Sequence record: OQ031072
Source of the DNA: Shigella phage SFPB
Length of the DNA stretch: 64,000 bases
Direction: 5' to 3' (one strand)
Shown here: piece by piece, positions 5,609 through 63,579 of the stretch
How positions within the stretch are numbered: position 1 is the stretch's first letter
How the letters are laid out: every line of letters begins with the position of its first letter
The notes under the pieces: model-generated
Databases searched by the model: none
What the model saw: only the letters and a program-made list of their open reading frames with translations
What the model was told of the DNA's origin: nothing
Position numbers and translations under genes: made by a program

Positions 5609-5809
5609 GTGTTGAAGATGAGAGAGAATAACTTTAAAGTAATTGACCACCGTACAGTGGAACTCTCATCTCTTTCCAAAGAAGTTATGATGGAGCGACT
5701 TGAAAGGGTCGCTTCAAGAAGGAAAGAGATTGCAGAAGAAATCCATGAGCTTGATAAGATTGAAAACGGTCTTAAGGCAGAACTACAACGAAGAGGTGTG
5801 AATGGCTAA
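5609..5809 (+). CDS. hypothetical protein
   Basis: ORF track 66 aa, coiled-coil-like. Confidence 0.35.
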   Translation: MLKMRENNFKVIDHRTVELSSLSKEVMMERLERVASRRKEIAEEIHELDKIENGLKAELQRRGVNG

Positions 5810-7487
5810 ACAGAGAAAACTGAAAGATGCTGGAACATTTGTAGGTCACTGTGCATGTCCACGCCCTCAATGTTTATCTTCAGATGCAGGTTCTATATAT
5901 CGTCATGATGACGGTTCATATTCAATGACATGTTTCAGTTGTGGAAAAGGTTTTCCAGAGTGGGATTTTGATAAAGGGCAGATTGTGAGTACTCATACTT
6001 CAGGTTCAGAGAATAAAAACCGTACATTTCGTGGTATGGATTTAGATGATGTGAAAGAAAACCTAGAAGCAATGGATTTAAAAGACAGGAAGATTCCTGC
6101 AAAAGTCCTTGAGCGCCTTGGTATTAAAGTTGATATTGACGACAATGGTGACATTGATGCGCACTTCTATCCAACATACAAAAAAGATGAAGATGGTAAG
6201 TTGCAACATGTAGGTTATCGTGTTCGTCACAAATATCCAGATGATTATCACAAAGAGCACTTACGTGGGAAGTTGAAAGACTTTTCTGGTGGTGTCGGAG
6301 ATATCAAAGGTGAACTGGCTATGTTCGGTTCATGGATTGCTCCAGAAGGTGGTAACCGTCTTTTCATCTGGGAAGGTGAGATGGAATGTGCTACAGCAAT
6401 CTACATGACTTCTTTAGCAATTAAAGATAAGTCTAGACGTAAGAATTACTGCCACGTTTCTGTACCATCCGGTGCTAATGTTAAGTCTATCAAAGAGAAC
6501 TATCAGTATATTACTTCCTTTGATGAGATTTACCTATGCTTTGATAATGATGAAGCAGGGGCTAAAGCAACTAAGGAAGCTGCTGGTATCTTACCTATTG
6601 AAAAAGTAAGACTGTTCCAGTATCCTGAAGGTATTAAAGACCTTAGTGAGTGGTGGACTAAGTTCTTCAAAGACAAAGATACAGTCTTGGAAGGATTTAA
6701 ACAACGAATCTACAATGCACCTCGTTACTGCCCTGCTGGTATCAAGAACTTTGCAGATGGTTTCGATGCTATGAAGAATCGTGGTCAGATTCCTTTAATT
6801 CCTTTCCCAGATTCTTTCGGGGATTTGAATAAGTTGACTTATGGCGGGTATGGTTTAGGTGAGATTACAACCCTTGCTGCACCTTCATCTGTAGGTAAGT
6901 CTGCATATACTCGTGAAATGATTTACAAAGCATGGAAAGATACTGAGTACAACATCGGTGTAATTCCTGTAGAAGACACTTACGAAGAACTTATGGAAAT
7001 GCTCTGTGCAATCCATCTTAGTAAGCAGATTTCAGAGATTCCTTACGATGAGCGTAATTGGGATGAGATTAAGGTTGCACATGCTGAGTTGTCAAAAGGT
7101 CGTCGTATTCACATCGTAGACCACCAAGGGGCAATTGACCAAGATAACCTGCTGGAGTTTGTTGACTATCTGGTTAACAGCCTTGATTGTAAGATTATCA
7201 TTCTTGACCCTATTACATTGGCGCTGTCACGCTCTGATACAGATGAAGAAGAAGTTCTGTCTGAGTTACTTCGTCGCTGTAAGCGTTATCAGTATGCTCA
7301 GGTAAACGTGTGTCACGTTCGTAAGAGTGCAGGTGGTCAAAAGGCCAACTCTGAAGGTGGTGATATTTCTGAAGAAGATATCAAGGGTTCTGGTGCATAC
7401 TTCCAGATTTCCATGAACAACATTTTGCTTATGCGTAACAAGGTTGACCCAGACCCTGTTAAAAAGAACTTGACAAAATCAAGTTAA
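5802..7487 (+). CDS. DNA primase-helicase (T7 gp4-like), frame-disrupted near 3' end
   Basis: Zn-finger CxxC...CxxC, TOPRIM (EGEMECA, FDNDEAG), Walker A AAPSSVGKS, Walker B IIILDP; frame ends KKNLTKSS* while helicase C-terminus continues in -1 frame. Confidence 0.85.
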   Translation: MAKQRKLKDAGTFVGHCACPRPQCLSSDAGSIYRHDDGSYSMTCFSCGKGFPEWDFDKGQIVSTHTSGSENKNRTFRGMDLDDVKENLEAMDLKDRKIPAKVLERLGIKVDIDDNGDIDAHFYPTYKKDEDGKLQHVGYRVRHKYPDDYHKEHLRGKLKDFSGGVGDIKGELAMFGSWIAPEGGNRLFIWEGEMECATAIYMTSLAIKDKSRRKNYCHVSVPSGANVKSIKENYQYITSFDEIYLCFDNDEAGAKATKEAAGILPIEKVRLFQYPEGIKDLSEWWTKFFKDKDTVLEGFKQRIYNAPRYCPAGIKNFADGFDAMKNRGQIPLIPFPDSFGDLNKLTYGGYGLGEITTLAAPSSVGKSAYTREMIYKAWKDTEYNIGVIPVEDTYEELMEMLCAIHLSKQISEIPYDERNWDEIKVAHAELSKGRRIHIVDHQGAIDQDNLLEFVDYLVNSLDCKIIILDPITLALSRSDTDEEEVLSELLRRCKRYQYAQVNVCHVRKSAGGQKANSEGGDISEEDIKGSGAYFQISMNNILLMRNKVDPDPVKKNLTKSS

Positions 7488-7792
7488 CGAAATGTCGTCG
7501 TCATGGTAAATCAACTGGTATTGCTGGTCACACTTGGTACAATCCAGATACAGGCCGTCTTGTAAAGGCTGCTGGATGTGGTGTTGATATTGATGGTGCA
7601 GCAGAGAATATTCGTCAGCAGTTTGGTATTGGTGAGGCTGAAGACCATTATGATGACTCTATGCCACACTATGAAGATGTTGATTTTGACCGTGAATCTG
7701 GAGAGATTTACACACAAGAGCAACGTGAAAGCTCCACCATTCCACCTGTGATTAACGAGGATAATGATGACTGTCCGTTCGAAACTGATTGA
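7463..7792 (+). CDS. primase-helicase C-terminal segment (continuation in -1 frame)
   Basis: Open frame translating ...KLTKCRRHGKSTGIAGHTWYNPDTGRL..., resembling T7 gp4 C-terminus; no start codon of its own. Confidence 0.6.
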   Translation, partial: KELDKIKLTKCRRHGKSTGIAGHTWYNPDTGRLVKAAGCGVDIDGAAENIRQQFGIGEAEDHYDDSMPHYEDVDFDRESGEIYTQEQRESSTIPPVINEDNDDCPFETD

Positions 7793-8264: not shown

Positions 8265-8672
8265 ATGTCTAAAGTTGTTAAAATGAAAGCTCCGGTAGAG
8301 AAGTACAATGGTCAAGAACGTGAGACTCTGCGTTACCTACTGAAAGATGTTTGGTTCTATTACCTGAACACTATTCCACGTCCTCAAAAGGGTAAATCTG
8401 TGGATAAGCATTTTCCGGGCAAAGATTGTAACTACAGCGTTTCAATTCTGGCAAAAGATGGTAACAAGCTCTTTAAAGAGTTCACCAAATCCAAGCGCAA
8501 TGCTGAAGGTTGGGATAAAGTTACTACAGAGGCTGTTGATGCAGATGACTTCGAAGAGAAGTTTGGTTGTGAGCCTCCGTTTGAAGCTGACACCTATCAC
8601 ATCCTGAAGGTTAGCCGTTCAGCAGCATATAAAGACGGTGCTGTGTGGTCAGCAAAACAGAGTTTCCTGTAA
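8265..8672 (+). CDS. SSB-like protein, N-terminal part (T7 gp2.5-like)
   Basis: ORF track 135 aa; sits in replication module; downstream ORF in -1 frame carries LVPY and acidic tail. Confidence 0.45.
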   Translation: MSKVVKMKAPVEKYNGQERETLRYLLKDVWFYYLNTIPRPQKGKSVDKHFPGKDCNYSVSILAKDGNKLFKEFTKSKRNAEGWDKVTTEAVDADDFEEKFGCEPPFEADTYHILKVSRSAAYKDGAVWSAKQSFL

Positions 8673-9124
8673 TGCTGGTTGAAGAAATCAACGGTAAGCG
8701 TGTTGCAGTTAAGCAGCCTATGAAGAAAATCAAGGCAGCAAAATCTGATAAGCACGATGATGATAAGACTTACGATGTAATTCATCCAGATATTGCAGTT
8801 GGTAACGGCTCATTTGGTAGTGTGATTCTGGCGACTCACTTCTACACATTTGAAGGTAACGTTCTGACCAAGCCAATTCAGGAACAATTTATCATTGATA
8901 CTCTGGTTCCTTACACTGGTGGTACTGGTGGTGCTACTGAGACTGAACTGGATGAAGATGAACTGGCAATGCTTGGTCTTGCAGGTGTTGAAGACAACGG
9001 TGAAATCACTGAAGAAGATGCAAAAGATTCTGGTGATGAAGGTAAAGGTGGTGATGACGATGACGACGACCTACCAAACCCAGATGATGACGACGAAGAT
9101 GATTTCGAAACTGACGACGAGTAA
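8645..9124 (+). CDS. acidic C-terminal protein; probable SSB C-terminal part
   Basis: C-terminus GGDDDDDDLPNPDDDDEDDFETDDE; LVPYTGGTGG resembles T7 gp2.5; internal ATG at 8672 overlaps upstream stop (TAATG). Confidence 0.45.
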   Translation: MVSKTEFPVMLVEEINGKRVAVKQPMKKIKAAKSDKHDDDKTYDVIHPDIAVGNGSFGSVILATHFYTFEGNVLTKPIQEQFIIDTLVPYTGGTGGATETELDEDELAMLGLAGVEDNGEITEEDAKDSGDEGKGGDDDDDDLPNPDDDDEDDFETDDE

Positions 9125-16495: not shown

Positions 16496-18637
16496 ATGGT
16501 TAAAGTACAAATTATTAAGAAAGACGGTTCACTGGAAAAGCCAAACGTAAATAAAATCGTCGAAGCAGTTACCAAGTCAGCTAATAGAGTTGGCTACAAA
16601 GAGTTACCACTAGAAGTTACCCATGCTCTTGAATCAGCCTTTATGAGACTGCTTGTCAGAGCAACTAATCAGAATGCTATGCTCATCTCTGTAGATGATG
16701 TTCACAGTATTGTAGAAGGGACTCTGGCAGAGGTAAACCATGAAATCTATGAGTCATATTCAACCTACAGAAACTATCGTAAAGAGGTTGCACAGAATTG
16801 GGATGAACTTTACCAGAAAACTAAAGACACACTCTTCTTAGGTGACCGTGAGAATGCTAACTTTGACAGTAGCTTAATCTCTACAAAAGGTTCAATCATC
16901 CGTGGATATTTGACAAAAGAAATCTTTAAGCAGTATCACTTGACACCAGAAGAAGCAAGTGCTATTGAAGATGGATTCATTTATATCCATGACTTAAGAG
17001 ACTTAATCTTCGGTGGTATTAACTGTTGCTTGTTTGACATGGGAAGCGTCTTGAAAGGTGGTTTTGAAATGTCAGGCATCGAATACTGTGAACCAAAGTC
17101 TGTACTTTCAGCTTTACAGGTTATTGGTGACGTTGTACTCTCAGCAACTGCACAGCAATTTGGTGGGTTTACTATCCCAGAGATTGACAAGGTTCTTGTG
17201 CCATATGCTAAGAAGTCTTTTGAGTATCATCTGGAGAAAGCAAAGCAGTATAATATCCCAAGTAAAGAAGTATACCACTACGCTAAAGAGCAACTTCAGA
17301 TTGAGCTAACCCAAGGCTTCCAATCTCTGGAAATGAAACTGAATACAGTTCCTTGCAGCCGTGGTGATTTTGCATTCACAACTTTAACGTTTGGTTTACT
17401 CGAACCAGATATGGCTAGTGAAGATAACCGCTTGCAATTTATGATTGCAAAGACTATTCTTGATGTGAGAATGAATGGTCAAGGCAAGTCTAAGAAGCCT
17501 GTTGTATTCCCTAAACTGGTTTACATTTATGATGAGACAAGGCACATGTTAGACCCTTGGCAGGGAACTCTTTATGACAAAGCTATTGAGTGCTGTTCTA
17601 AAGCTATGTATCCAGACTTCTTAAGTGTTTCTGGTCATGGTTCTGTTGCAGAAGCTTTTGAGCGTTCAGGTGCAGTCATCTCTCCAATGGGTTGTAGGGC
17701 TTTCTTATCACCATATTATGATGAAGATGGTAAAGAGTTCTACACAGGGCGAGCAAATATCGGTGCAGTATCTCTTAATCTGCCAATGATTTACAAGTAT
17801 TCTGAAGAGAATGGTTTAGACTTCTGGACAGAACTTGACAAATACCTTGAAATGATTCGAAGCTTCCATAAGAAGCGTTATGAGATGATTGCTAATATGC
17901 CAGCAAGCTCTAACCCTTTAGCTTTCACACAAGGTGGATTGTATAAAGGACATAAGAAGCCAACTGATAAGATTGGTTGGGATACTGTTAAGTCTTTTAC
18001 AGCATCTTTTGGCGTGACCGCATTAGATGAATTAACAGTGCTTGCTCAAGGTAGAAGATTGCATGAGTCTGATGGTGATATTGCAAGCAAGGTTTTAAGC
18101 TATCTGAATAGCAAGCTGGAGCAGTTTAAGCAGGAAGACGGCTTCCTGTATGCACTTTATGGTACACCTGCTGAGAGTCTTTGTGGTACGCAATTGAAGC
18201 AGTTTAGAAATATGTTCGGAGTTGTTAAAGGTGTTTCTGATAAAGAGTACTTTACAAACAGTTTCCACATGAATGTTGGTGCAGACATTACACCGTTTGA
18301 AAAGCAAGACTTAGAAGAACCTTTCTTCCACTCTTGTAATGGAGGCCATATCATCTACTCAAGGTTAGCCAATCCTGAGAACTTGCAAGCTATCAGGGCT
18401 TGTGTAACAAGGGGTATGGGTAAAGGATTCTATCAAGGTATCAACTTTGACTTAGCAATCTGTGAAAATTGTGGTCACAGACCTAACAAAGATGTTGAAC
18501 TATGCCCTAAGTGCAACTCCCATGATATCTCTGTGATTAATCGTGTGTGTGGTTATCTAGGTTGGACTAAGATTAAAGGTACTTCCAGAATGAACGATGC
18601 AAAAATTGCAGAAATCAAGGACAGAGTATGTATGTAA
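16496..18637 (+). CDS. nrdD: anaerobic ribonucleoside-triphosphate reductase (class III)
   Basis: ATG 16496 after AGGAG RBS; N-terminal ATP-cone; C-terminal Zn-ribbon CxxC...CxxC and glycyl-radical RVCGY motif. Confidence 0.9.
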   Translation: MVKVQIIKKDGSLEKPNVNKIVEAVTKSANRVGYKELPLEVTHALESAFMRLLVRATNQNAMLISVDDVHSIVEGTLAEVNHEIYESYSTYRNYRKEVAQNWDELYQKTKDTLFLGDRENANFDSSLISTKGSIIRGYLTKEIFKQYHLTPEEASAIEDGFIYIHDLRDLIFGGINCCLFDMGSVLKGGFEMSGIEYCEPKSVLSALQVIGDVVLSATAQQFGGFTIPEIDKVLVPYAKKSFEYHLEKAKQYNIPSKEVYHYAKEQLQIELTQGFQSLEMKLNTVPCSRGDFAFTTLTFGLLEPDMASEDNRLQFMIAKTILDVRMNGQGKSKKPVVFPKLVYIYDETRHMLDPWQGTLYDKAIECCSKAMYPDFLSVSGHGSVAEAFERSGAVISPMGCRAFLSPYYDEDGKEFYTGRANIGAVSLNLPMIYKYSEENGLDFWTELDKYLEMIRSFHKKRYEMIANMPASSNPLAFTQGGLYKGHKKPTDKIGWDTVKSFTASFGVTALDELTVLAQGRRLHESDGDIASKVLSYLNSKLEQFKQEDGFLYALYGTPAESLCGTQLKQFRNMFGVVKGVSDKEYFTNSFHMNVGADITPFEKQDLEEPFFHSCNGGHIIYSRLANPENLQAIRACVTRGMGKGFYQGINFDLAICENCGHRPNKDVELCPKCNSHDISVINRVCGYLGWTKIKGTSRMNDAKIAEIKDRVCM

Positions 18638-19083
18638 AGGAGCTTCTTTGCTACAATCCAGAAAATGGTGAAATAAGATGGAAGAGTGACGGCAGCCTTG
18701 CTGGAAGTAAAATTTCAGGAGGCTACATTCTCATAACACTTCCAGATGGTTCCAAAGAATATGCTCACAGACTGGCATTCTTACTTATGGGTGAAGAGAT
18801 ACCTGAGTTAGTAGACCACATCAATGGTATTAGAGATGATAACCGTTGGAGCAACTTAAGAAGCTCTAACAAGGTTGATAATGCTTGTAATGCTAAATTA
18901 AGAGATGACAATAAAACAGGGTATAAAGGTATTTCTTGGGACTCTTCGAGAAAGAGGTGGAGAGTTTCAATAACCTATAACAAAAGGACAGTTTCCAAGA
19001 GATTCAAAAACTTTGAAGATGCTGTAGAGTACATGCAAGACTTAAGATTGGAACTTCATTCACAGTACTGTAGGTTCAAATAA
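18628..19083 (+). CDS. HNH homing endonuclease with AP2-like DNA-binding domain
   Basis: VDHINGIRDDNRWSNLR HNH motif; GYKGISWDSSRKRWRVSI AP2-like; inserted between nrdD and nrdG. Confidence 0.65.
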   Translation: MYVKELLCYNPENGEIRWKSDGSLAGSKISGGYILITLPDGSKEYAHRLAFLLMGEEIPELVDHINGIRDDNRWSNLRSSNKVDNACNAKLRDDNKTGYKGISWDSSRKRWRVSITYNKRTVSKRFKNFEDAVEYMQDLRLELHSQYCRFK

Positions 19084-34154: not shown

Positions 34155-34538
34155 ATGAAAAAATATTATATGCCAAAATTCATCAAGAAAGAAAACTTTC
34201 GTGATGCTCTGGAAAAATACATGAATGAGCAGTTCAAAGGTAAATTAATTGTTGTCCACGCATACAATTTTAAGTATGATGTAAATGGAAACAAGACAAA
34301 TCACTATACCGCTACGATGCTGGATGGTACACTCTCAGGTGAAAAAGCCATTATCAATGCACTGGCTGGACGTGGTAAAACGTTGATACGTTGTGATAAA
34401 CGCCGATATCAGGGCAGTTCTTATGGTTATGAGGATGCAGTCTATCACCTTGATAACATGGGTTACAATGTCGAAAAAGCTGGCGTGTCTCAAATGATTG
34501 GTAGTGATGGATATGTGACAATTTTTAAAATTAACTAA
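34155..34538 (+). CDS. hypothetical protein (cassette-driven)
   Basis: ORF track 127 aa; cassette upstream. Confidence 0.5.
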   Translation: MKKYYMPKFIKKENFRDALEKYMNEQFKGKLIVVHAYNFKYDVNGNKTNHYTATMLDGTLSGEKAIINALAGRGKTLIRCDKRRYQGSSYGYEDAVYHLDNMGYNVEKAGVSQMIGSDGYVTIFKIN

Positions 34539-40472: not shown

Positions 40473-42017
40473 ACGTCTATACAATCTCTTTCTAGACTCT
40501 TACCAGACATTTAGAATAATAACTCTATAGATTACTCTATAACCTCTTATCAAATCAACTAACTTTTCCCTTAAATATAAGCCCATAACCCGAAAGGGAA
40601 GGGCAATCCCTAAAACGCTCTATAACGCTCTATACGGGCTTATCATCTCATCTTAAGCAATCATATTAAACCATTCTTAAAAGCCCTTCATAGAGCTTTC
40701 TAGAGCCTTAAAAGAATCTTATAAGGATATAAGCTTTATTATCTCGTTAGTATCTTGTGAATGGTTAAACAGGGGCTTGATAATAGCTTTAAAGTATGTT
40801 ATGGAGACTAAAAAGAGCTTAAAAGTAACGTAAAAGATGCTTAAAAGTAACGTAAAAGTTAGCCCCCTTTACATTCTCTTAACAAAATCTTAACAAATGC
40901 AACATAGTTATGCTTATTAGAGACTTGTTAAGCCTCAGTTAAATCCTTGTTAGAGGTATGTTAAAAGCTTGTTAGACACTTTGAAGTCCCTGTATAAGCC
41001 CCTAGAAAGCCCTATAAAGAGCTATACAGGTATTTGGGGTGTAGTTACTAGGGAGAATCTTAGAAGAGGCTATACAGAGCTACAGAGAACTTTTAAGAGG
41101 GCTTTATAGAGAATCACTAAGAAGGGAAGGGAACTATAGACCAAGAGATAGTGACCATGTTAATAGCTTGTTAAAAAGGTTTAGAACTTGTTAGCATCTT
41201 GTTAATTATCTTAACAAAATAACTATTAAGATTTAACTATTTAGCAACTTATAAGCAACTTGTTAGATTCTTGTTAGTAATGTTACAGAATGGTTAAGTT
41301 CTTGTTAGTTCTGTTAAGGGATTGTTAAGAACTCTGAAGAGATGTTAAGAGCTTGAGAGAGTTGTTAAGAGATTGTTAATGATATTTTAAGATTTTGCAA
41401 AGGGGATGTTACAGGGCTGTTAAGGGCTACCAAGCAGATATACACCCATGAGGTAGATTCTACCGAATCCACTAGTAGATATTTTTAGATTCTCCAAAGA
41501 CCCTAAAAAGTAACCTACCTAGTCTATTTTATAAAAATTTTATAGAACTGAATAACTATCTATACACTATCTTATATAAAACAGGAATTAACAGGCTTAT
41601 AAGATACCTTGTTAGTACCGTGTTAGACCTTGTAGGATAAGCCTTTACAGGGAATACCTGTTTAGTGTTATATAACAGTCTATATAGAGGCTTAGTTGAC
41701 CCTAGTGAACCATCTATAGAGAGTACTCTCTGTGACATAGAGATTAAGATGGATATAGGGGCTTCTAAGGGGCTATGAAGAGACTAGGAAGGTGATTATA
41801 TAGGTTTGGAAGAGGGCTTGTTAGAGAGCTTTGTAGAGGGCTATTTAGAAGGGGCTATATAGTTTCACTAGATAGAGACTAAGAGGCTATATAGATACTA
41901 TATAATACTATATAGAGAGTATGCTTAGATAGGTTGTTTAGAAGGTCTAGATATTTTATCACATATCATGGTGACCCAAGATGAACGGAGTGAATCCAAA
42001 TTTTATAAAATAATAAA
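40473..42017. repeat. ORF-free repeat-dense region; candidate origin or terminus-associated region
   Basis: No credible ORF; many short repeats (CTTGTTAG/TTGTTAAGA family, GCTATA(T/C)AGAG family); bounded by convergent terminators. Confidence 0.5.
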
Positions 42018-42036
42018 AGCCCCAAAAGAGGGGCTG
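42018..42036 (-). terminator. hairpin terminator at end of minus-strand operon
   Basis: AGCCCC-AAAAGA-GGGGCT with A-run on plus side. Confidence 0.5.
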
Positions 42037-42044
42037 TAAAGTTC

Positions 42045-42710
42045 TTAGCAAAGGTTATCTATGACAGCCTGAATAGCTGGAATAGTTGTGTGATAAAAAT
42101 GAGTGTTTCCGTTATGGGCTTCTCTCACTTGTAACATGATAGAGTGACCCTTTACAGGGAAGCATTGAATGTGATAACGATTCCCGTTAAATACTACTCC
42201 ACCACCTGAACAGAACCCTTCCAAGACTGACTTAGCAAGGAACTCTTCTTTCCCTGTGACCTTTATGAAGACACCCCTGTTAACTTGTGAATGGTAAATG
42301 TCTTCCATAAACAGCATCTGTTGTCCACCAAGTGAAACCATAGAGATACCTTTACGATTCTGCTCTTTAACATATATCTCAAGTTTCTTCAAAGTCTCTT
42401 CATAGAACGGATAAGACTTCTTCACAAAGATACCTTCAAGTGGCTCATCACCAGCATCTTCACGTTCATCTTTAAGTCTCTCTACAAGACAATTAAGACT
42501 TCTTCTCTCGCTATCGTCAAGATACTTATTGATATCTTCCAAGCTAAGTACCAAGTACTTTCTCTCTAAGTTAAATTCTTTGGTCATCTCTATCAAATCC
42601 TTAAAAGCTTTTTCAGTAACCTTCTTCCATTCTTCTGAGTTCTTCTTCTGAGGGAGTACCATATCTCTCAAGAACTTGAAACTCTTCTTCAGACGGGCTT
42701 CCATAATCAT
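42045..42710 (-). CDS. hypothetical protein
   Basis: ORF track 221 aa. Confidence 0.45.
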   Translation of the reverse strand: MIMEARLKKSFKFLRDMVLPQKKNSEEWKKVTEKAFKDLIEMTKEFNLERKYLVLSLEDINKYLDDSERRSLNCLVERLKDEREDAGDEPLEGIFVKKSYPFYEETLKKLEIYVKEQNRKGISMVSLGGQQMLFMEDIYHSQVNRGVFIKVTGKEEFLAKSVLEGFCSGGGVVFNGNRYHIQCFPVKGHSIMLQVREAHNGNTHFYHTTIPAIQAVIDNLC

Positions 42711-42715
42711 ACTCT

Positions 42716-43174
42716 TCAGAAATCGATTCTGTAGTCTGAACGGCTATAGTTTGCTGTAATGAATCCATCGTAACCTACCAACCATCTTCCATAGGTGTTA
42801 AAAATTGAAGTGTTATCAGCACTCATAATATCACCTTCATAGCCTAAATCGTCAATCTCTCTAACAAGCTTAATAGAGCCGACTGTTTCACCTGTTGGTG
42901 CATGTTTGATGATGTATACACGATTTAATTTACAATCTTCTTCTTCTTCACGTAAATCATATGGCTTCAGTAAATCTCTATCTGCTTGTAAGTTGGACTC
43001 TGAAAAAGCTGCATGAACCATGTAAGCTTCTGAACACTCCCAGATAAAGCTATGAAGAAGAACCTTTGCAGCATTTCTTGAACAATCAAATTCTGCAACG
43101 ATATCTTTGTACATGTCATCTTTAGTTCCGTTGTTAAGCAAAGCTTTACGGACTACCTCTTTAACATTCTTCAT
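42716..43174 (-). CDS. hypothetical protein
   Basis: Track ORF 169 aa; likely start MKNVKE at 43174. Confidence 0.4.
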   Translation of the reverse strand: MKNVKEVVRKALLNNGTKDDMYKDIVAEFDCSRNAAKVLLHSFIWECSEAYMVHAAFSESNLQADRDLLKPYDLREEEEDCKLNRVYIIKHAPTGETVGSIKLVREIDDLGYEGDIMSADNTSIFNTYGRWLVGYDGFITANYSRSDYRIDF

Positions 43175-56664: not shown

Positions 56665-56670
56665 AATATT

Positions 56671-56746
56671 AGCAGTGTAGCATAACTGGAAATGCACCAG
56701 CCTCTGAAGCTGAAAGATTAAGGTTCAAATCCTTATACTGCTGCCA
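56671..56746 (+). tRNA. tRNA-Gln (anticodon CTG)
   Basis: Acceptor AGCAGTG/TACTGCT; loop CTCTGAA; G73; CCA. Confidence 0.55.
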
Positions 56747-56777
56747 CTTCTAAGGGTTCTTACGAGAGTCCTTAAAT

Positions 56778-56854
56778 GTGGCCTTATCATAAATGGATAA
56801 TGACCCATGCTGTGAACATGGTCTATACGGGTTCGATTCCCGTAGGTCACCCCA
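56778..56854 (+). tRNA. tRNA-His (anticodon GTG)
   Basis: Anticodon stem CCATG/CATGG, loop CTGTGAA; C73; CCA. Confidence 0.6.
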
Positions 56855-56861
56855 ATTTAAT

Positions 56862-56937
56862 AGCTCAATTAGCTTATATGGTTAAAGCGCGTGTCTGAAA
56901 AACATGAGAACAGGGTTCAAATCCCGATGGGCTACCA
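56862..56937 (+). tRNA. tRNA-Phe (anticodon GAA)
   Basis: Loop CTGAAAA; A73; CCA; T-stem weak. Confidence 0.5.
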
Positions 56938-56953
56938 ACTTTATAGGTGCATA

Positions 56954-57688
56954 ATGAAAGAGATGACAGAACAAAGTAAAGAGATTTTTAATCTCCTTAA
57001 AACCGGTAATGGTTTCTCAAACCCTCTTATTACTGGTGCAGCAGTTCTTGGTGGTACAGTTGCCGCTTCTCAGTCATTAGTAACTTCTATTGGTTCTGTA
57101 TCAGACCCAGCCACACAGCAAATTCTTATTGCTGCTGGACTGACAACAGCCTTATTAGGAAGCTTCACAACAAGCCTTGGAAGTACAACTTCAACGACAA
57201 GTACACTCACTGAGTATGGACAAAAGTCTGTAGATGAGTTTTCACAGCGTATGCAGGTAGCTAAAGGCTACTCTAACGTCATGGGAGCAGTAGGTGAGCA
57301 AGTTGGATGTACACCATTTAGTGGCATTATGGGTGTAGCTACTGAGTACGGCAATAAAGCGATGGATTTGATTAATACCTCCATAGACGCTGTAAACAGC
57401 GTTCTAAGCGATTTGCAAGATGCAATCGATAAAGGACTAGGGACAATCTCTGAACTCGCTACACAGGCTGTTACAGCGATTAATGAGGGCATTGCAAAGA
57501 TTACTGCATATGCTAACGAAGTAGCTCAGATGATTGCAGATGAAGCAGCATTGATTGCAGAATACCTGAAAACAAATATTAATGGTTTCCTTGCAAATGT
57601 TCTACCAAGCTGGTTTGATGATTCATGTAAAACTGGTGTGATTGATACTATTGCAACTCCAGAGATGAAAGAAGCTCTGAACAAATAA
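56954..57688 (+). CDS. hypothetical Ala/Ser/Thr-rich protein with N-terminal hydrophobic segment
   Basis: ATG 56954 just after tRNA-Phe (track start 56891 overlaps tRNA). Confidence 0.45.
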   Translation: MKEMTEQSKEIFNLLKTGNGFSNPLITGAAVLGGTVAASQSLVTSIGSVSDPATQQILIAAGLTTALLGSFTTSLGSTTSTTSTLTEYGQKSVDEFSQRMQVAKGYSNVMGAVGEQVGCTPFSGIMGVATEYGNKAMDLINTSIDAVNSVLSDLQDAIDKGLGTISELATQAVTAINEGIAKITAYANEVAQMIADEAALIAEYLKTNINGFLANVLPSWFDDSCKTGVIDTIATPEMKEALNK

Positions 57689-57689
57689 T

Positions 57690-57781
57690 GGAAGATTAAC
57701 CCTAAAGGTAAGGGAGCAGTTTGCTAAACTGCCAGTAACCGAGAAATCGGCGTACCAGTTCAAGTCTGGTATCTTCCTCCA
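57690..57781 (+). tRNA. tRNA-Ser (anticodon GCT), long variable arm
   Basis: Acceptor GGAAGAT/ATCTTCC; anticodon stem GCAGT/ACTGC, loop TTGCTAA; CCA. Confidence 0.6.
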
Positions 57782-57787
57782 AATTAT

Positions 57788-57863
57788 GTGTCGGTGTCAG
57801 AAATGGTTATGTGCCTGTCTGCAAAACAGGTTTATGAGGGTTCGAGTCCCTTCCGATACTCCA
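57788..57863 (+). tRNA. tRNA-Cys (anticodon GCA)
   Basis: Anticodon stem CCTGT/ACAGG, loop CTGCAAA; U73; CCA. Confidence 0.6.
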
Positions 57864-58295: not shown

Positions 58296-59753
58296 TTGCA
58301 GAGGTGCTTAATGGACTTAAATGTTATTAAGCAGAAGCGAGTGGAAGATGTAAGGAAAGTCCTAGCAGGTGAGTTGGGGCTTTCTGAAGAAGTAAAAGAT
58401 ATTATCAAATCCTTTGGTAAAGACCCCTCTAAATTCCTTCCAACTCAAATTCTGACTTTATTAAGGTACACCCCAGACCAAGTAAGACTCATCTTTAAAT
58501 TGATGACTGACAAGAACTATGTAGCTCCACAGCCTGGCTCTCAAGAGGTATTCTTGAACACTAATGCTGACTTGGTACTATATGGTGGTGCTGCTGGTGC
58601 TGGTAAGACTGCTGCCCTATTAATGGACTCACTAAGGTTTATTGAAGACCCAAACTATAACGCTGTTTATTTCCGTCGAAATACAACACAGTTACAAGGT
58701 GGTTTGTGGCCTGCGGCTAAGAAGTTATTTGGTAAGTTTGGTGGAGTTCCACATGAACAGAAAATGACTATCACTTTCCCTTCTGGAGCAACTATCAAGT
58801 TTACTTATTTGGAACTTGAGAAACACTCAGAAGGTCACCAAGGTATCGAATACTCAGCTATTTATTTCGACGAAGGTACACACTTCTCGGCTTCACAGAT
58901 TTCATATCTTCAGACACGTTTACGTTCTGGTGCTGAAGGTGACTCATATATGAAAATCTCAATGAACCCAGATAGAGACCACTTTATTTATGATTGGGTA
59001 GAACCTTTCCTAGATGATGCTGGATATCCAGACCCAGAGAAGTGCGGTAGGATTCGTTGGTATGTTATGAATGATGGTGTCATGGTTTCTGATTGGGATA
59101 GAGATAAAATTCTTGAAATGTTCCCTCTTGAGATTCCTCAAACATATACCTTTATTTCCGGTACAATTGATGACAACCCTATTCTAGATTTCCTTGAACC
59201 TAAGTATCGTGGTAAATTAGAAAACAACACACCAGTTAACGTTGCACGTTTACGTTTTGGTAACTGGAAAGCTCGTGCTGAAGGTTCAAACTATTGGCAA
59301 AGACAATGGTGTGAAATTGTTGATAGTGTTCCAGCAGATGTATTTGACGTAAGAGCATGGGACTTAGCAGCAACATTACCTTCTGAGGTTAACCCTAACC
59401 CTGACTGGACAGCAGGTGTTAAAATGGGTAAATCTAAAAAAGATGGTTGCTATTATGTGATTAACGTAGTAAGATTTAGAGATAGACCTTCTGGAGTTGA
59501 AACACAAATTAACCAAACTGCTGAAGGTGATGGTAAGCGCACAGGTATTTTTATCCCTCAAGACCCCGGCGCTGCTGGTAAATCCTACGCAACCTCCTTA
59601 TTAGAAAACTTGCTGAGAAAGGTTTCCGAGCAAGAGCTAAACCAACAAATAAAGATAAAGTCACCCGTTTTGCGGGTTTCTCTGCTGCTTCTGAGGCAGG
59701 ACTTGTCAAAATTGTTAGAGGCTCTTGGAATGAAGCATATTTCCAAGAACTAG
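58296..59753 (+). CDS. terminase large subunit (ATPase domain), frame-disrupted before nuclease domain
   Basis: Walker A LYGGAAGAGKTA; DPGAAGKSYA motif; frame ends in atypical sequence while terminase C-terminus continues in -1 frame. Confidence 0.8.
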   Translation: MQRCLMDLNVIKQKRVEDVRKVLAGELGLSEEVKDIIKSFGKDPSKFLPTQILTLLRYTPDQVRLIFKLMTDKNYVAPQPGSQEVFLNTNADLVLYGGAAGAGKTAALLMDSLRFIEDPNYNAVYFRRNTTQLQGGLWPAAKKLFGKFGGVPHEQKMTITFPSGATIKFTYLELEKHSEGHQGIEYSAIYFDEGTHFSASQISYLQTRLRSGAEGDSYMKISMNPDRDHFIYDWVEPFLDDAGYPDPEKCGRIRWYVMNDGVMVSDWDRDKILEMFPLEIPQTYTFISGTIDDNPILDFLEPKYRGKLENNTPVNVARLRFGNWKARAEGSNYWQRQWCEIVDSVPADVFDVRAWDLAATLPSEVNPNPDWTAGVKMGKSKKDGCYYVINVVRFRDRPSGVETQINQTAEGDGKRTGIFIPQDPGAAGKSYATSLLENLLRKVSEQELNQQIKIKSPVLRVSLLLLRQDLSKLLEALGMKHISKN

Positions 59754-59911
59754 AAGGTTTTTGTGGCGATGGTCGTACTAAGGATGACCAAGTGGATGCT
59801 ACCAGTGATGCTTTCAACAGTCTAAACGAAGTTAAACTATTCAAGCCACCTTCAATGGGTGCTCATACAGATATTATGAAGAGTAATCCATATCAGGGGC
59901 TAAGACGCTAA
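59582..59911 (+). CDS. terminase large subunit C-terminal segment (continuation in -1 frame)
   Basis: Translation ...RKLAEKGFRARAKPTNKDKVTRFAGFSAASEAGLVKIVRGSWNEAYFQELEGFCGDGRTKDDQVDATSDAFNSL... with terminase KxDDxVDA..AF motif. Confidence 0.65.
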   Translation: MLRNLLIRKLAEKGFRARAKPTNKDKVTRFAGFSAASEAGLVKIVRGSWNEAYFQELEGFCGDGRTKDDQVDATSDAFNSLNEVKLFKPPSMGAHTDIMKSNPYQGLRR

Positions 59912-62230: not shown

Positions 62231-62443
62231 ATGAGTTCGAATATCTTCAGACTTGCTGACAGATTATTCAACCAACCTTTACTAGCTACAGAATCATTAG
62301 CCCACTCAGCAGCGACTTATGTTAATAACCGCTTGTTAGGTGAGGTACAAGCAGCAGTAAACTTCGATAAGCCAAAAGGTGAAGCAAGGAGTCTTTTAAA
62401 GTTAAAGAAGACATTGCTATCATCCCTATTATGGGTGGCCTAA
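62231..62443 (+). CDS. prohead protease N-terminal segment (upstream frame)
   Basis: MSSNIFRLADRLFNQPLLATE... resembles N-terminus of S49-type phage head proteases; main protease frame is -1 relative. Confidence 0.5.
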   Translation: MSSNIFRLADRLFNQPLLATESLAHSAATYVNNRLLGEVQAAVNFDKPKGEARSLLKLKKTLLSSLLWVA

Positions 62444-63579
62444 CACATCGTATGACCTTCATGGATGCAATGTGTACTGGTGGACTAAGTTCTTATGAAG
62501 GTTTACGCAGAGGCTTTGACGAAGCCCTAGCAGATGAGTCTATTAAGACTATCGTGCTGCACGTTGATTCAGGTGGTGGTGAAGCGTCAGGTTGTTTTGA
62601 GTTGGCACGTCACATCATGGCTTCAAGAGGCCAAAAGAAAATTATTGCTTATGTAGATGAGTTTGCTTGCTCTGCTGCATATGCTCTTGCATCTTCCGCT
62701 GAAGAAATTATTGCATCACCAGATGCAGATGTTGGTTCAATTGGTGTGATTATGGTTCACCAAGAATTAACTAAAGCATTTGAAAAGAATGGCGTAACTA
62801 TTAACGTTATTAAAGCTGGTGAATTTAAAGGTATGGGTTCCCCATTCCAAGCATTATCAGAAGAAAGCAAGAATAGACTTCAAAAGAGAATTGATGACAC
62901 TTACAAGACTTTTACTAGTTTTGTTGCAGACTCACGTAATATCTCCGAAGAAGCTGTAAAGAATACTGAGGCGAATGTTTATTCTGCTCAGGAAGCTCTT
63001 GAACTTGGTTTAATTAACTCTATCATGTCTCAAGATGATTTCTTAAATTACTTACAAGGTTCTGAAGAAGCTCCTGTAAGTTTAAACACAAACAATTCAG
63101 GTGAAGAAATGACTGAACAAGAAAAGCAAGAACTAGAAGCTCTGCGTCTTCAGGTTGCTCAAATGAAAGCTAAGGAACAGGAAGCAGTTCTTACAGATTT
63201 AACTGGTAAGGTTTCTGCATCTGCTGAAGCTTTTGGGTTTGATGCAAAAGAAGCTGCAACAGCTATTTTAGGTGCTGGTCTTGACAACCCTCTGAGTGTT
63301 CTGTTTATGAATGCTATGGAAGGTGCTAACCAGAAACTTAATGAAACTATCGCGTCCCATGCTTCTGCCATGTCTGAGAAGGATTCTGAAATCACTAAGC
63401 TGAAAGAAGCTGCTGGTGCTGTTCTGGAACACTCAAACGCTATGGAAGAACTTGGCAATGACGGCGAAGCAGAAGTGGATGATGGTAAAGATACCACTCC
63501 AGAAGCAAATGTTAATGCTAACGCTGACCAACGCAAACTGGCTCTCCAGAATGCTTTGAATACTCTTATCAAGAAATAA
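62431..63579 (+). CDS. prohead protease (S49/ClpP-like) with C-terminal coiled-coil scaffold-like region
   Basis: VLHVDSGGGEASG and CSAAYALASSA motifs; coiled-coil C-terminus; frame open upstream to 62383. Confidence 0.75.
   Translation: MGGLTHRMTFMDAMCTGGLSSYEGLRRGFDEALADESIKTIVLHVDSGGGEASGCFELARHIMASRGQKKIIAYVDEFACSAAYALASSAEEIIASPDADVGSIGVIMVHQELTKAFEKNGVTINVIKAGEFKGMGSPFQALSEESKNRLQKRIDDTYKTFTSFVADSRNISEEAVKNTEANVYSAQEALELGLINSIMSQDDFLNYLQGSEEAPVSLNTNNSGEEMTEQEKQELEALRLQVAQMKAKEQEAVLTDLTGKVSASAEAFGFDAKEAATAILGAGLDNPLSVLFMNAMEGANQKLNETIASHASAMSEKDSEITKLKEAAGAVLEHSNAMEELGNDGEAEVDDGKDTTPEANVNANADQRKLALQNALNTLIKK

Follow-up and report, generated by a model that had tools for sequence, protein, structure and literature searches.

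Phage T7 produces two forms of its primase-helicase, gp4, by internal initiation and not by frameshifting. T7 gp4 combines a Toprim primase and a DnaB-family RecA-like helicase in one chain (PDB entries 5ikn, 6n7i, 1q57, and 1e0j), and its residue R522 is an arginine finger which coordinates cooperativity between subunits, a critical role that has been confirmed by mutagenesis (PMC1616965). More closely related are the primase/helicases of the Mooglevirus and Felixounavirus phages, represented by gp30 of Shigella phage KPS64, in which the gene is a single continuous frame. In E. coli dnaX, a replication gene, a programmed -1 frameshift at A AAA AAG, flanked by an SD-like element upstream and a stem-loop downstream, shortens the product.

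The sequence of Shigella phage SFPB (record OQ031072), of which a stretch of 64,000 nt was analyzed here (the window), can be set beside each of these systems. Its primase/helicase has the single-chain organization of T7 gp4 and, in the repaired frame, shares with it the KCR(R/F) arginine-finger segment and the acidic C-terminal tail, although sequence identity between the two is low and the protein of the window has a longer C-terminal extension. With KPS64 it has in common the gene neighborhood, namely a dNMP kinase and a small ORF upstream and gp29, gp28, gp27, and an exonuclease downstream, and after the repair of one A the protein is identical to that of KPS64; unlike KPS64, the window is one A short at 7475-7478 and the ORF is split. 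The likeness to dnaX consists of an AAA AAG near the break in a replication gene, whereas a full heptamer, conserved stimulators, and a conserved break are all lacking, and frameshifting would be required to complete the product instead of shortening it. It is very probable that the missing A is a sequencing or assembly error and that the real phage would have an intact 663-codon gene which needs no recoding.

The split gene and its intact relatives

All features of the gene lie on the forward (+) strand. The part 5' of the lesion (5802..7478, codons 1-559), delimited by the ORF list, tblastn, Pfam, and alignment with T7 gp4, contains a zinc-finger, a Toprim primase domain, and most of a DnaB/gp4-type RecA-like helicase domain. 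Three-frame translation yields an ORF of 561 aa (5802..7487) with the C-terminal end VKKNLTKSS, closed in the original frame by a premature TAA at 7485-7487 which is seen in the sequence, the ORF list, and the translation, and which arises there because one A is missing. In the -1 frame there is a TAA at 7460-7462, after which the frame is open from 7463 to the TGA at 7790-7792 and reads KELDKIKLTKCRRHGKSTGIAGHTWYNPDTGRL. The first-pass annotation had described a main-frame stop at 7485..7487 and a -1 frame open only from 7463 through 7792, and the translations bear out both. The ORF is split into 561 + 104 codons, and the C-terminal 104 codons (7479..7792, -1 frame), recognized by translation and by comparison with KPS64 gp30 and T7, carry the KCRR motif and the acidic tail.

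Pfam searches placed Toprim_2 at residues 224-283 (33.2 bits, cut-off 22.1) and DnaB_C at residues 338-496 (31.6 bits, cut-off 27). In a PDB search, residues 151-594 aligned with residues 120-549 of T7 gp4 at an E value of about 1e-38 (5ikn, 6n7i, 1q57), while the primase part aligned to the T7 gp4 primase fragment 1nui and the helicase part matched the T7 gp4 helicase domain (1e0j, 1cr0) at an E value of about 1e-24. With an N-terminal Toprim domain and a C-terminal DnaB-like RecA fold, the predicted protein is a gp4-type (DnaB-family, SF4) primase-helicase. The resemblance of the downstream segment to the T7 gp4 C-terminus, proposed from the letters alone, holds, as the segment aligns to T7 gp4 up to residue 549. 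KCRR of the window pairs with KCRF of T7 gp4, in which the arginine is R522, and the break falls at residue 559/560, 7 residues upstream of the R522-aligned residue. In the window as read, KCRR lies past the stop in the -1 frame; after repair, and in every relative examined, it belongs to the same polypeptide. We infer that the 561-aa product, without the arginine finger and the final RecA-like core strands, would be inactive.

In the nucleotide alignment the window reads GACAAAATC where KPS64, Michonne, ESh21, and KMM4 read GACAAAAATC. The A-run at 7475-7478 is A4 where all close relatives have A5, which shifts the downstream frame by -1, and the same lesion was called by an indel census against KPS64 and Sf13. 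Of the two A-runs named in the first-pass annotation, the second, ACAAAATC (7475-7478), proved to be the one affected, and not GTTAAAAAGAAC. Megablast with 5802-7792 retrieved 275 phage records, all of them Ounavirinae (Felix-O1-like myoviruses), the best match being KPS64 (genus Mooglevirus) with 99.1% DNA identity over the gene. The primase/helicase is annotated as a single CDS of 1992 nt in KPS64, Michonne, and Sf13 and of 1989 nt in ESh21, and the equivalent stretch of the window measures 1991 nt. Likewise, 7350-7600 covers 251 nt in the window vs. 252 nt in 59 of the 60 best-matching phage records, the sole exception being KMM4, which has A5 here but has lost an A in the upstream run. A 25-mer with the A4 allele was absent from viral, metagenome, and genome contig collections, in which the A5 allele was present. 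A search with the exact 561-aa product had no match on record. The window differs by one base of a homopolymer, a difference that, by the alignment, the 60 best records, and the 25-mer searches, is unique to this record.

When one A is put back, the predicted protein has 663 aa and matches KPS64 gp30 (QBP32793.1) at every residue. By tblastn the upstream part is identical to gp30 at 559/559 residues. Nor is the downstream segment an ORF that arose by chance: after frame repair it is 100% identical to the gp30 C-terminus. Downstream of the lesion, substitutions in the repaired frame number 3 synonymous and 0 non-synonymous relative to Sf13 and 10 synonymous and 2 non-synonymous relative to Michonne, whereas nearly all of these would be non-synonymous in two control frames, so the final 104 codons have evolved as helicase sequence. 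Across the junction, a peptide of 87 aa was contiguous in 330 phage records and formed a single piece in all 60 rows sampled across the ranking. These records include Felix O1, phages of Erwinia, Yersinia, and Hafnia, Pseudomonas Pakpunavirus-like phages, and T7-like podoviruses, and neither termination at the equivalent position nor a frame shift was found at the junction of the orthologs (330 records, 60 rows sampled).

Other single-base losses in the window

The whole window was compared with the complete KPS64 and Sf13 genomes and isolated indels of a length not a multiple of three were counted, an isolated indel being one with no second gap within 40 nt and with flanks at least 90% identical. 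This census gave 13-15 deletions and 5-6 insertions of one base, almost always in a homopolymer 3-5 bases long. Eight of the deletions were placed identically against both references (7478, 8667, 21030, 38948, 53338, 57706, 59597, and 62400), and a further two were found against both with a slightly different alignment placement. When KPS64 proteins were searched against the window by tblastn, -1 frame switches appeared in four of the 13 long genes tested and the other nine were intact. The four comprise the primase/helicase (segments 5802-7478 and 7448-7789), the gp27 homologue (8265-8666 and 8651-9121), the large terminase (58311-59621 and 59549-59908), and the prohead protease (62231-62389 and 62395-63573).

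The gp27 homologue (KPS64 gp27/Sf13 gp95, 286 aa) at 8265..9124 is split into ORFs at 8265..8672 and 8645..9124 by a lesion near 8667, where the window reads TTTCC-TG vs. TTTCCCTG, a single C being lost relative to KPS64 and Sf13. The terminase large subunit (58311..59908) changes frame about 105 codons before its end, with the lesion near 59597 (CTCC-TT vs. CTCCCTT), and its ORF ends early at 59753, whereas relatives have an intact gene of 533 aa. In the head maturation (prohead) protease (62231..63573), which is intact in relatives at 448 aa, the frame changes after codon 53, with the lesion near 62400 (TAAA-G vs. TAAAAG). Two tRNA genes within a cluster of 25 tRNA genes (52101-57863), tRNA-Lys(UUU) at 53276-53350 and tRNA-Ser(GCU) at 57690-57781, each lack 1 nt relative to KPS64 and Sf13; the loss in tRNA-Lys(UUU) lies in the T-arm (GGTTCGAATCC-TCC vs. 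CCCTCC). An apparently missing tRNA-Tyr between tRNA-Asn and tRNA-Asp is not a lesion: ARAGORN reports no tRNA at 52587..52749 and Sf13 carries a tRNA-Tyr annotation there (tRNAscan-SE), yet the DNA is identical to that of Sf13 and the discrepancy is one of tools. More isolated single-base losses were seen at about 3339, 21030, 38948, 41945, 53747, and 56512, mostly just 5' of genes or intergenic, often as CCC to CC before T or as GGG to GG. This context bias suggests a systematic base-calling error. Among the other indels, some that fall in intergenic or tRNA-spacer DNA may reflect genuine variation between strains.

A comparable pattern is found in Citrobacter phage BSwM KMM4 (OP902293.1), the exception among the best-matching records. 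Here the same gene has a frameshift 15 nt upstream, an A having been lost from the neighboring A-run, and in its first 45 kb there are further frame switches in the DNA polymerase (two), the exonuclease (two), and NrdD (one), all of these genes being broken up into hypothetical proteins in the annotation. This genome was assembled with Flye from MinION R9.4.1 reads, and Illumina data are not mentioned in the paper (PMC10383413). In both sequences single-base losses in short homopolymers split conserved genes, although the window has fewer broken genes than KMM4 (four of the 13 long genes tested).

The loss in the primase/helicase has the features expected of a homopolymer error, in that it is a single base, is unique to the record, and recurs as similar losses elsewhere in conserved or essential genes. 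The simplest reading is that homopolymers were systematically under-called in this assembly, and we infer that the losses arose in sequencing or assembly rather than in the phage DNA. The suggestion that one A is missing through an assembly error is strongly supported by the A5 of relatives, the KPS64-identical protein obtained on repair, and the similar losses elsewhere. The window derives from a Mooglevirus (Ounavirinae, Felix-O1-like myovirus) in which the gp4-type primase/helicase is normally a single 663-codon gene. According to this account, one A of the A5 run (7475-7478) would not have been called in the assembly, which would create the apparent stop at 7485-7487 and push the last 104 codons, including the arginine-finger segment, into the -1 frame.

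Rival readings of the frame break

If the frame break were real and bypassed by recoding, some full-length helicase would be made beside the truncated form, a reading to which we assign very little weight. Recoding could proceed by a -1 ribosomal slip at T AAA AAG (7460-7466) or A AAA (7475-7478), or by RNA polymerase adding an A. The opening of the -1 frame exactly at 7463 formally allows a shift on the AAA AAG dicodon (7461..7466, located by sequence alignment), a hairpin of 7 bp lies directly 3' of it, and A AAG is prone to slippage in E. coli, as in dnaX, which counts for recoding. Against this, the break is not conserved, with one continuous frame in relatives (KPS64, Sf13, Michonne, and ESh21; 59 of the 60 best records; 330 records), and neither is the motif, as AAA AAG is synonymously replaced by AAG AAA in ESh21. 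Moreover, ribosomes that slipped by -1 at AAA AAG in a relative with an intact gene would, as read from the A5 sequence, hit a stop after about 15 codons, so a shift there would be without conserved function. No full X XXY YYZ heptamer was found in the zero frame, the only candidates being T AAA AAG (6/7) and C AAA A, and no significant downstream RNA structure was detected, the MFE of the 100 nt being -17.9 kcal/mol, compared with -17.65 on average for shuffled sequences (z = -0.09). A single hairpin (AACUUGA/UCAAGUU) was seen, which loops out the A-run and abuts AAG with zero spacer, compared with 5-9 nt for a stimulatory structure; the perfect 7-bp inverted repeat that forms this hairpin in the RNA fold (AACTTGA/TCAAGTT, 7467..7485) occurs in relatives too and is probably incidental. 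The window also holds the phage's own gene for tRNA-Lys(CUU), a tRNA that, reportedly from work on dnaX, should suppress slippage on AAG, so that slippage on this codon should be lowered here, and efficient transcriptional slippage would need longer runs than A4 or A5.

A frameshift in a second record, 15 nt upstream in KMM4, could be counted for recoding, and a biological hot spot was considered on this basis; it was rejected, as KMM4 was sequenced by Nanopore alone and its record shows another five switches spread over three more genes. A programmed -1 frameshift at AAA AAG was rejected for want of a heptamer, of conservation, and of a significant structure. The slippage on AAA AAG offered in the first-pass annotation is not supported, the frame being continuous in all relatives examined but this one error-laden Nanopore record, the dicodon varying synonymously, and neither a heptamer nor a significant downstream structure being present. 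Equally hard to credit is a novel and non-conserved rescue, in which A4 would be real in a viable phage that makes full-length helicase via low-level -1 slippage at T AAA AAG or at the A-run, whether ribosomal or transcriptional.

Somewhat less improbable, though still very unlikely, is that the deletion is a real recent mutation, present in a defective genome or as a minority variant in the assembly, which would leave a truncated and inactive helicase. Homopolymer runs are natural hot spots of replication slippage, and the rest of the gene being 100% protein-identical to KPS64 fits a very recent event. However, translation would stop 7 residues short of the arginine aligned with the R522 finger, and the A4 allele was seen nowhere else in the viral, metagenome, and genome contig collections. 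The large terminase and the prohead protease would be frameshifted in this genome as well, and these defects together are incompatible with a propagating phage; with terminase, protease, and replicative helicase all broken at once the phage could not propagate, and the assembly is thus likely to be at fault. The frame break is almost certainly an artifact; failing that, it would be a mutation that is lethal or arose very recently, and a small residue of probability stays with a genuine deletion, whether or not slippage rescues the gene. The reading we consider least credible of all is that of two genes, a helicase that ends at 7487 and a downstream segment which is translated independently. 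It draws on the annotation of KMM4 as two hypothetical proteins, yet all other relatives fuse both parts, and the corresponding segment of T7 gp4 belongs to one chain, whose RecA-like fold it completes. Near 7463 no ATG, GTG, or TTG preceded by a ribosome-binding site occurs in the -1 frame, the first listed start being ATG at 7661, and separate initiation was rejected for want of a start codon there. It had been proposed that orthologs which end at the equivalent position, with the downstream segment initiated separately, would tell against a broken gene; the ortholog comparison shows no such termination and already refutes the two-gene reading.

Consequences for annotation and observations elsewhere

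An under-called A as the source of the break would imply no new biology, and the main value of the analysis is as a quality flag, with about ten single-base homopolymer losses in the sequence. These yield false pseudogenes (primase/helicase, large terminase, prohead protease, and the gp27 homologue) and distort two tRNA genes. In annotation, 5802..7792 should be joined as one 663-codon primase/helicase with one A restored, and an apparent frameshift in the window or in the related Nanopore-only KMM4 should carry no weight until reads confirm it.

Several further differences from KPS64 were noted. In the rIIB gene, at about 28073, there is an in-frame 9-nt deletion relative to KPS64 (AAGAGTGCT missing), the protein being otherwise 97.9% identical. 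Two stretches, 42017..43019 (about 1 kb) and 18637..19083, have no KPS64 match by megablast and would therefore be strain-specific insertions or replacements. Between 34500 and 37100 a sequence of roughly 90 nt is repeated, with copies near 34528, 34883, 35482, and 36540. It matches KPS64 intergenic sites between small genes at 79.1, 80.3, 82.2, 83.2, and 83.7 kb, and probably serves the small-gene cluster as a repeated regulatory element.
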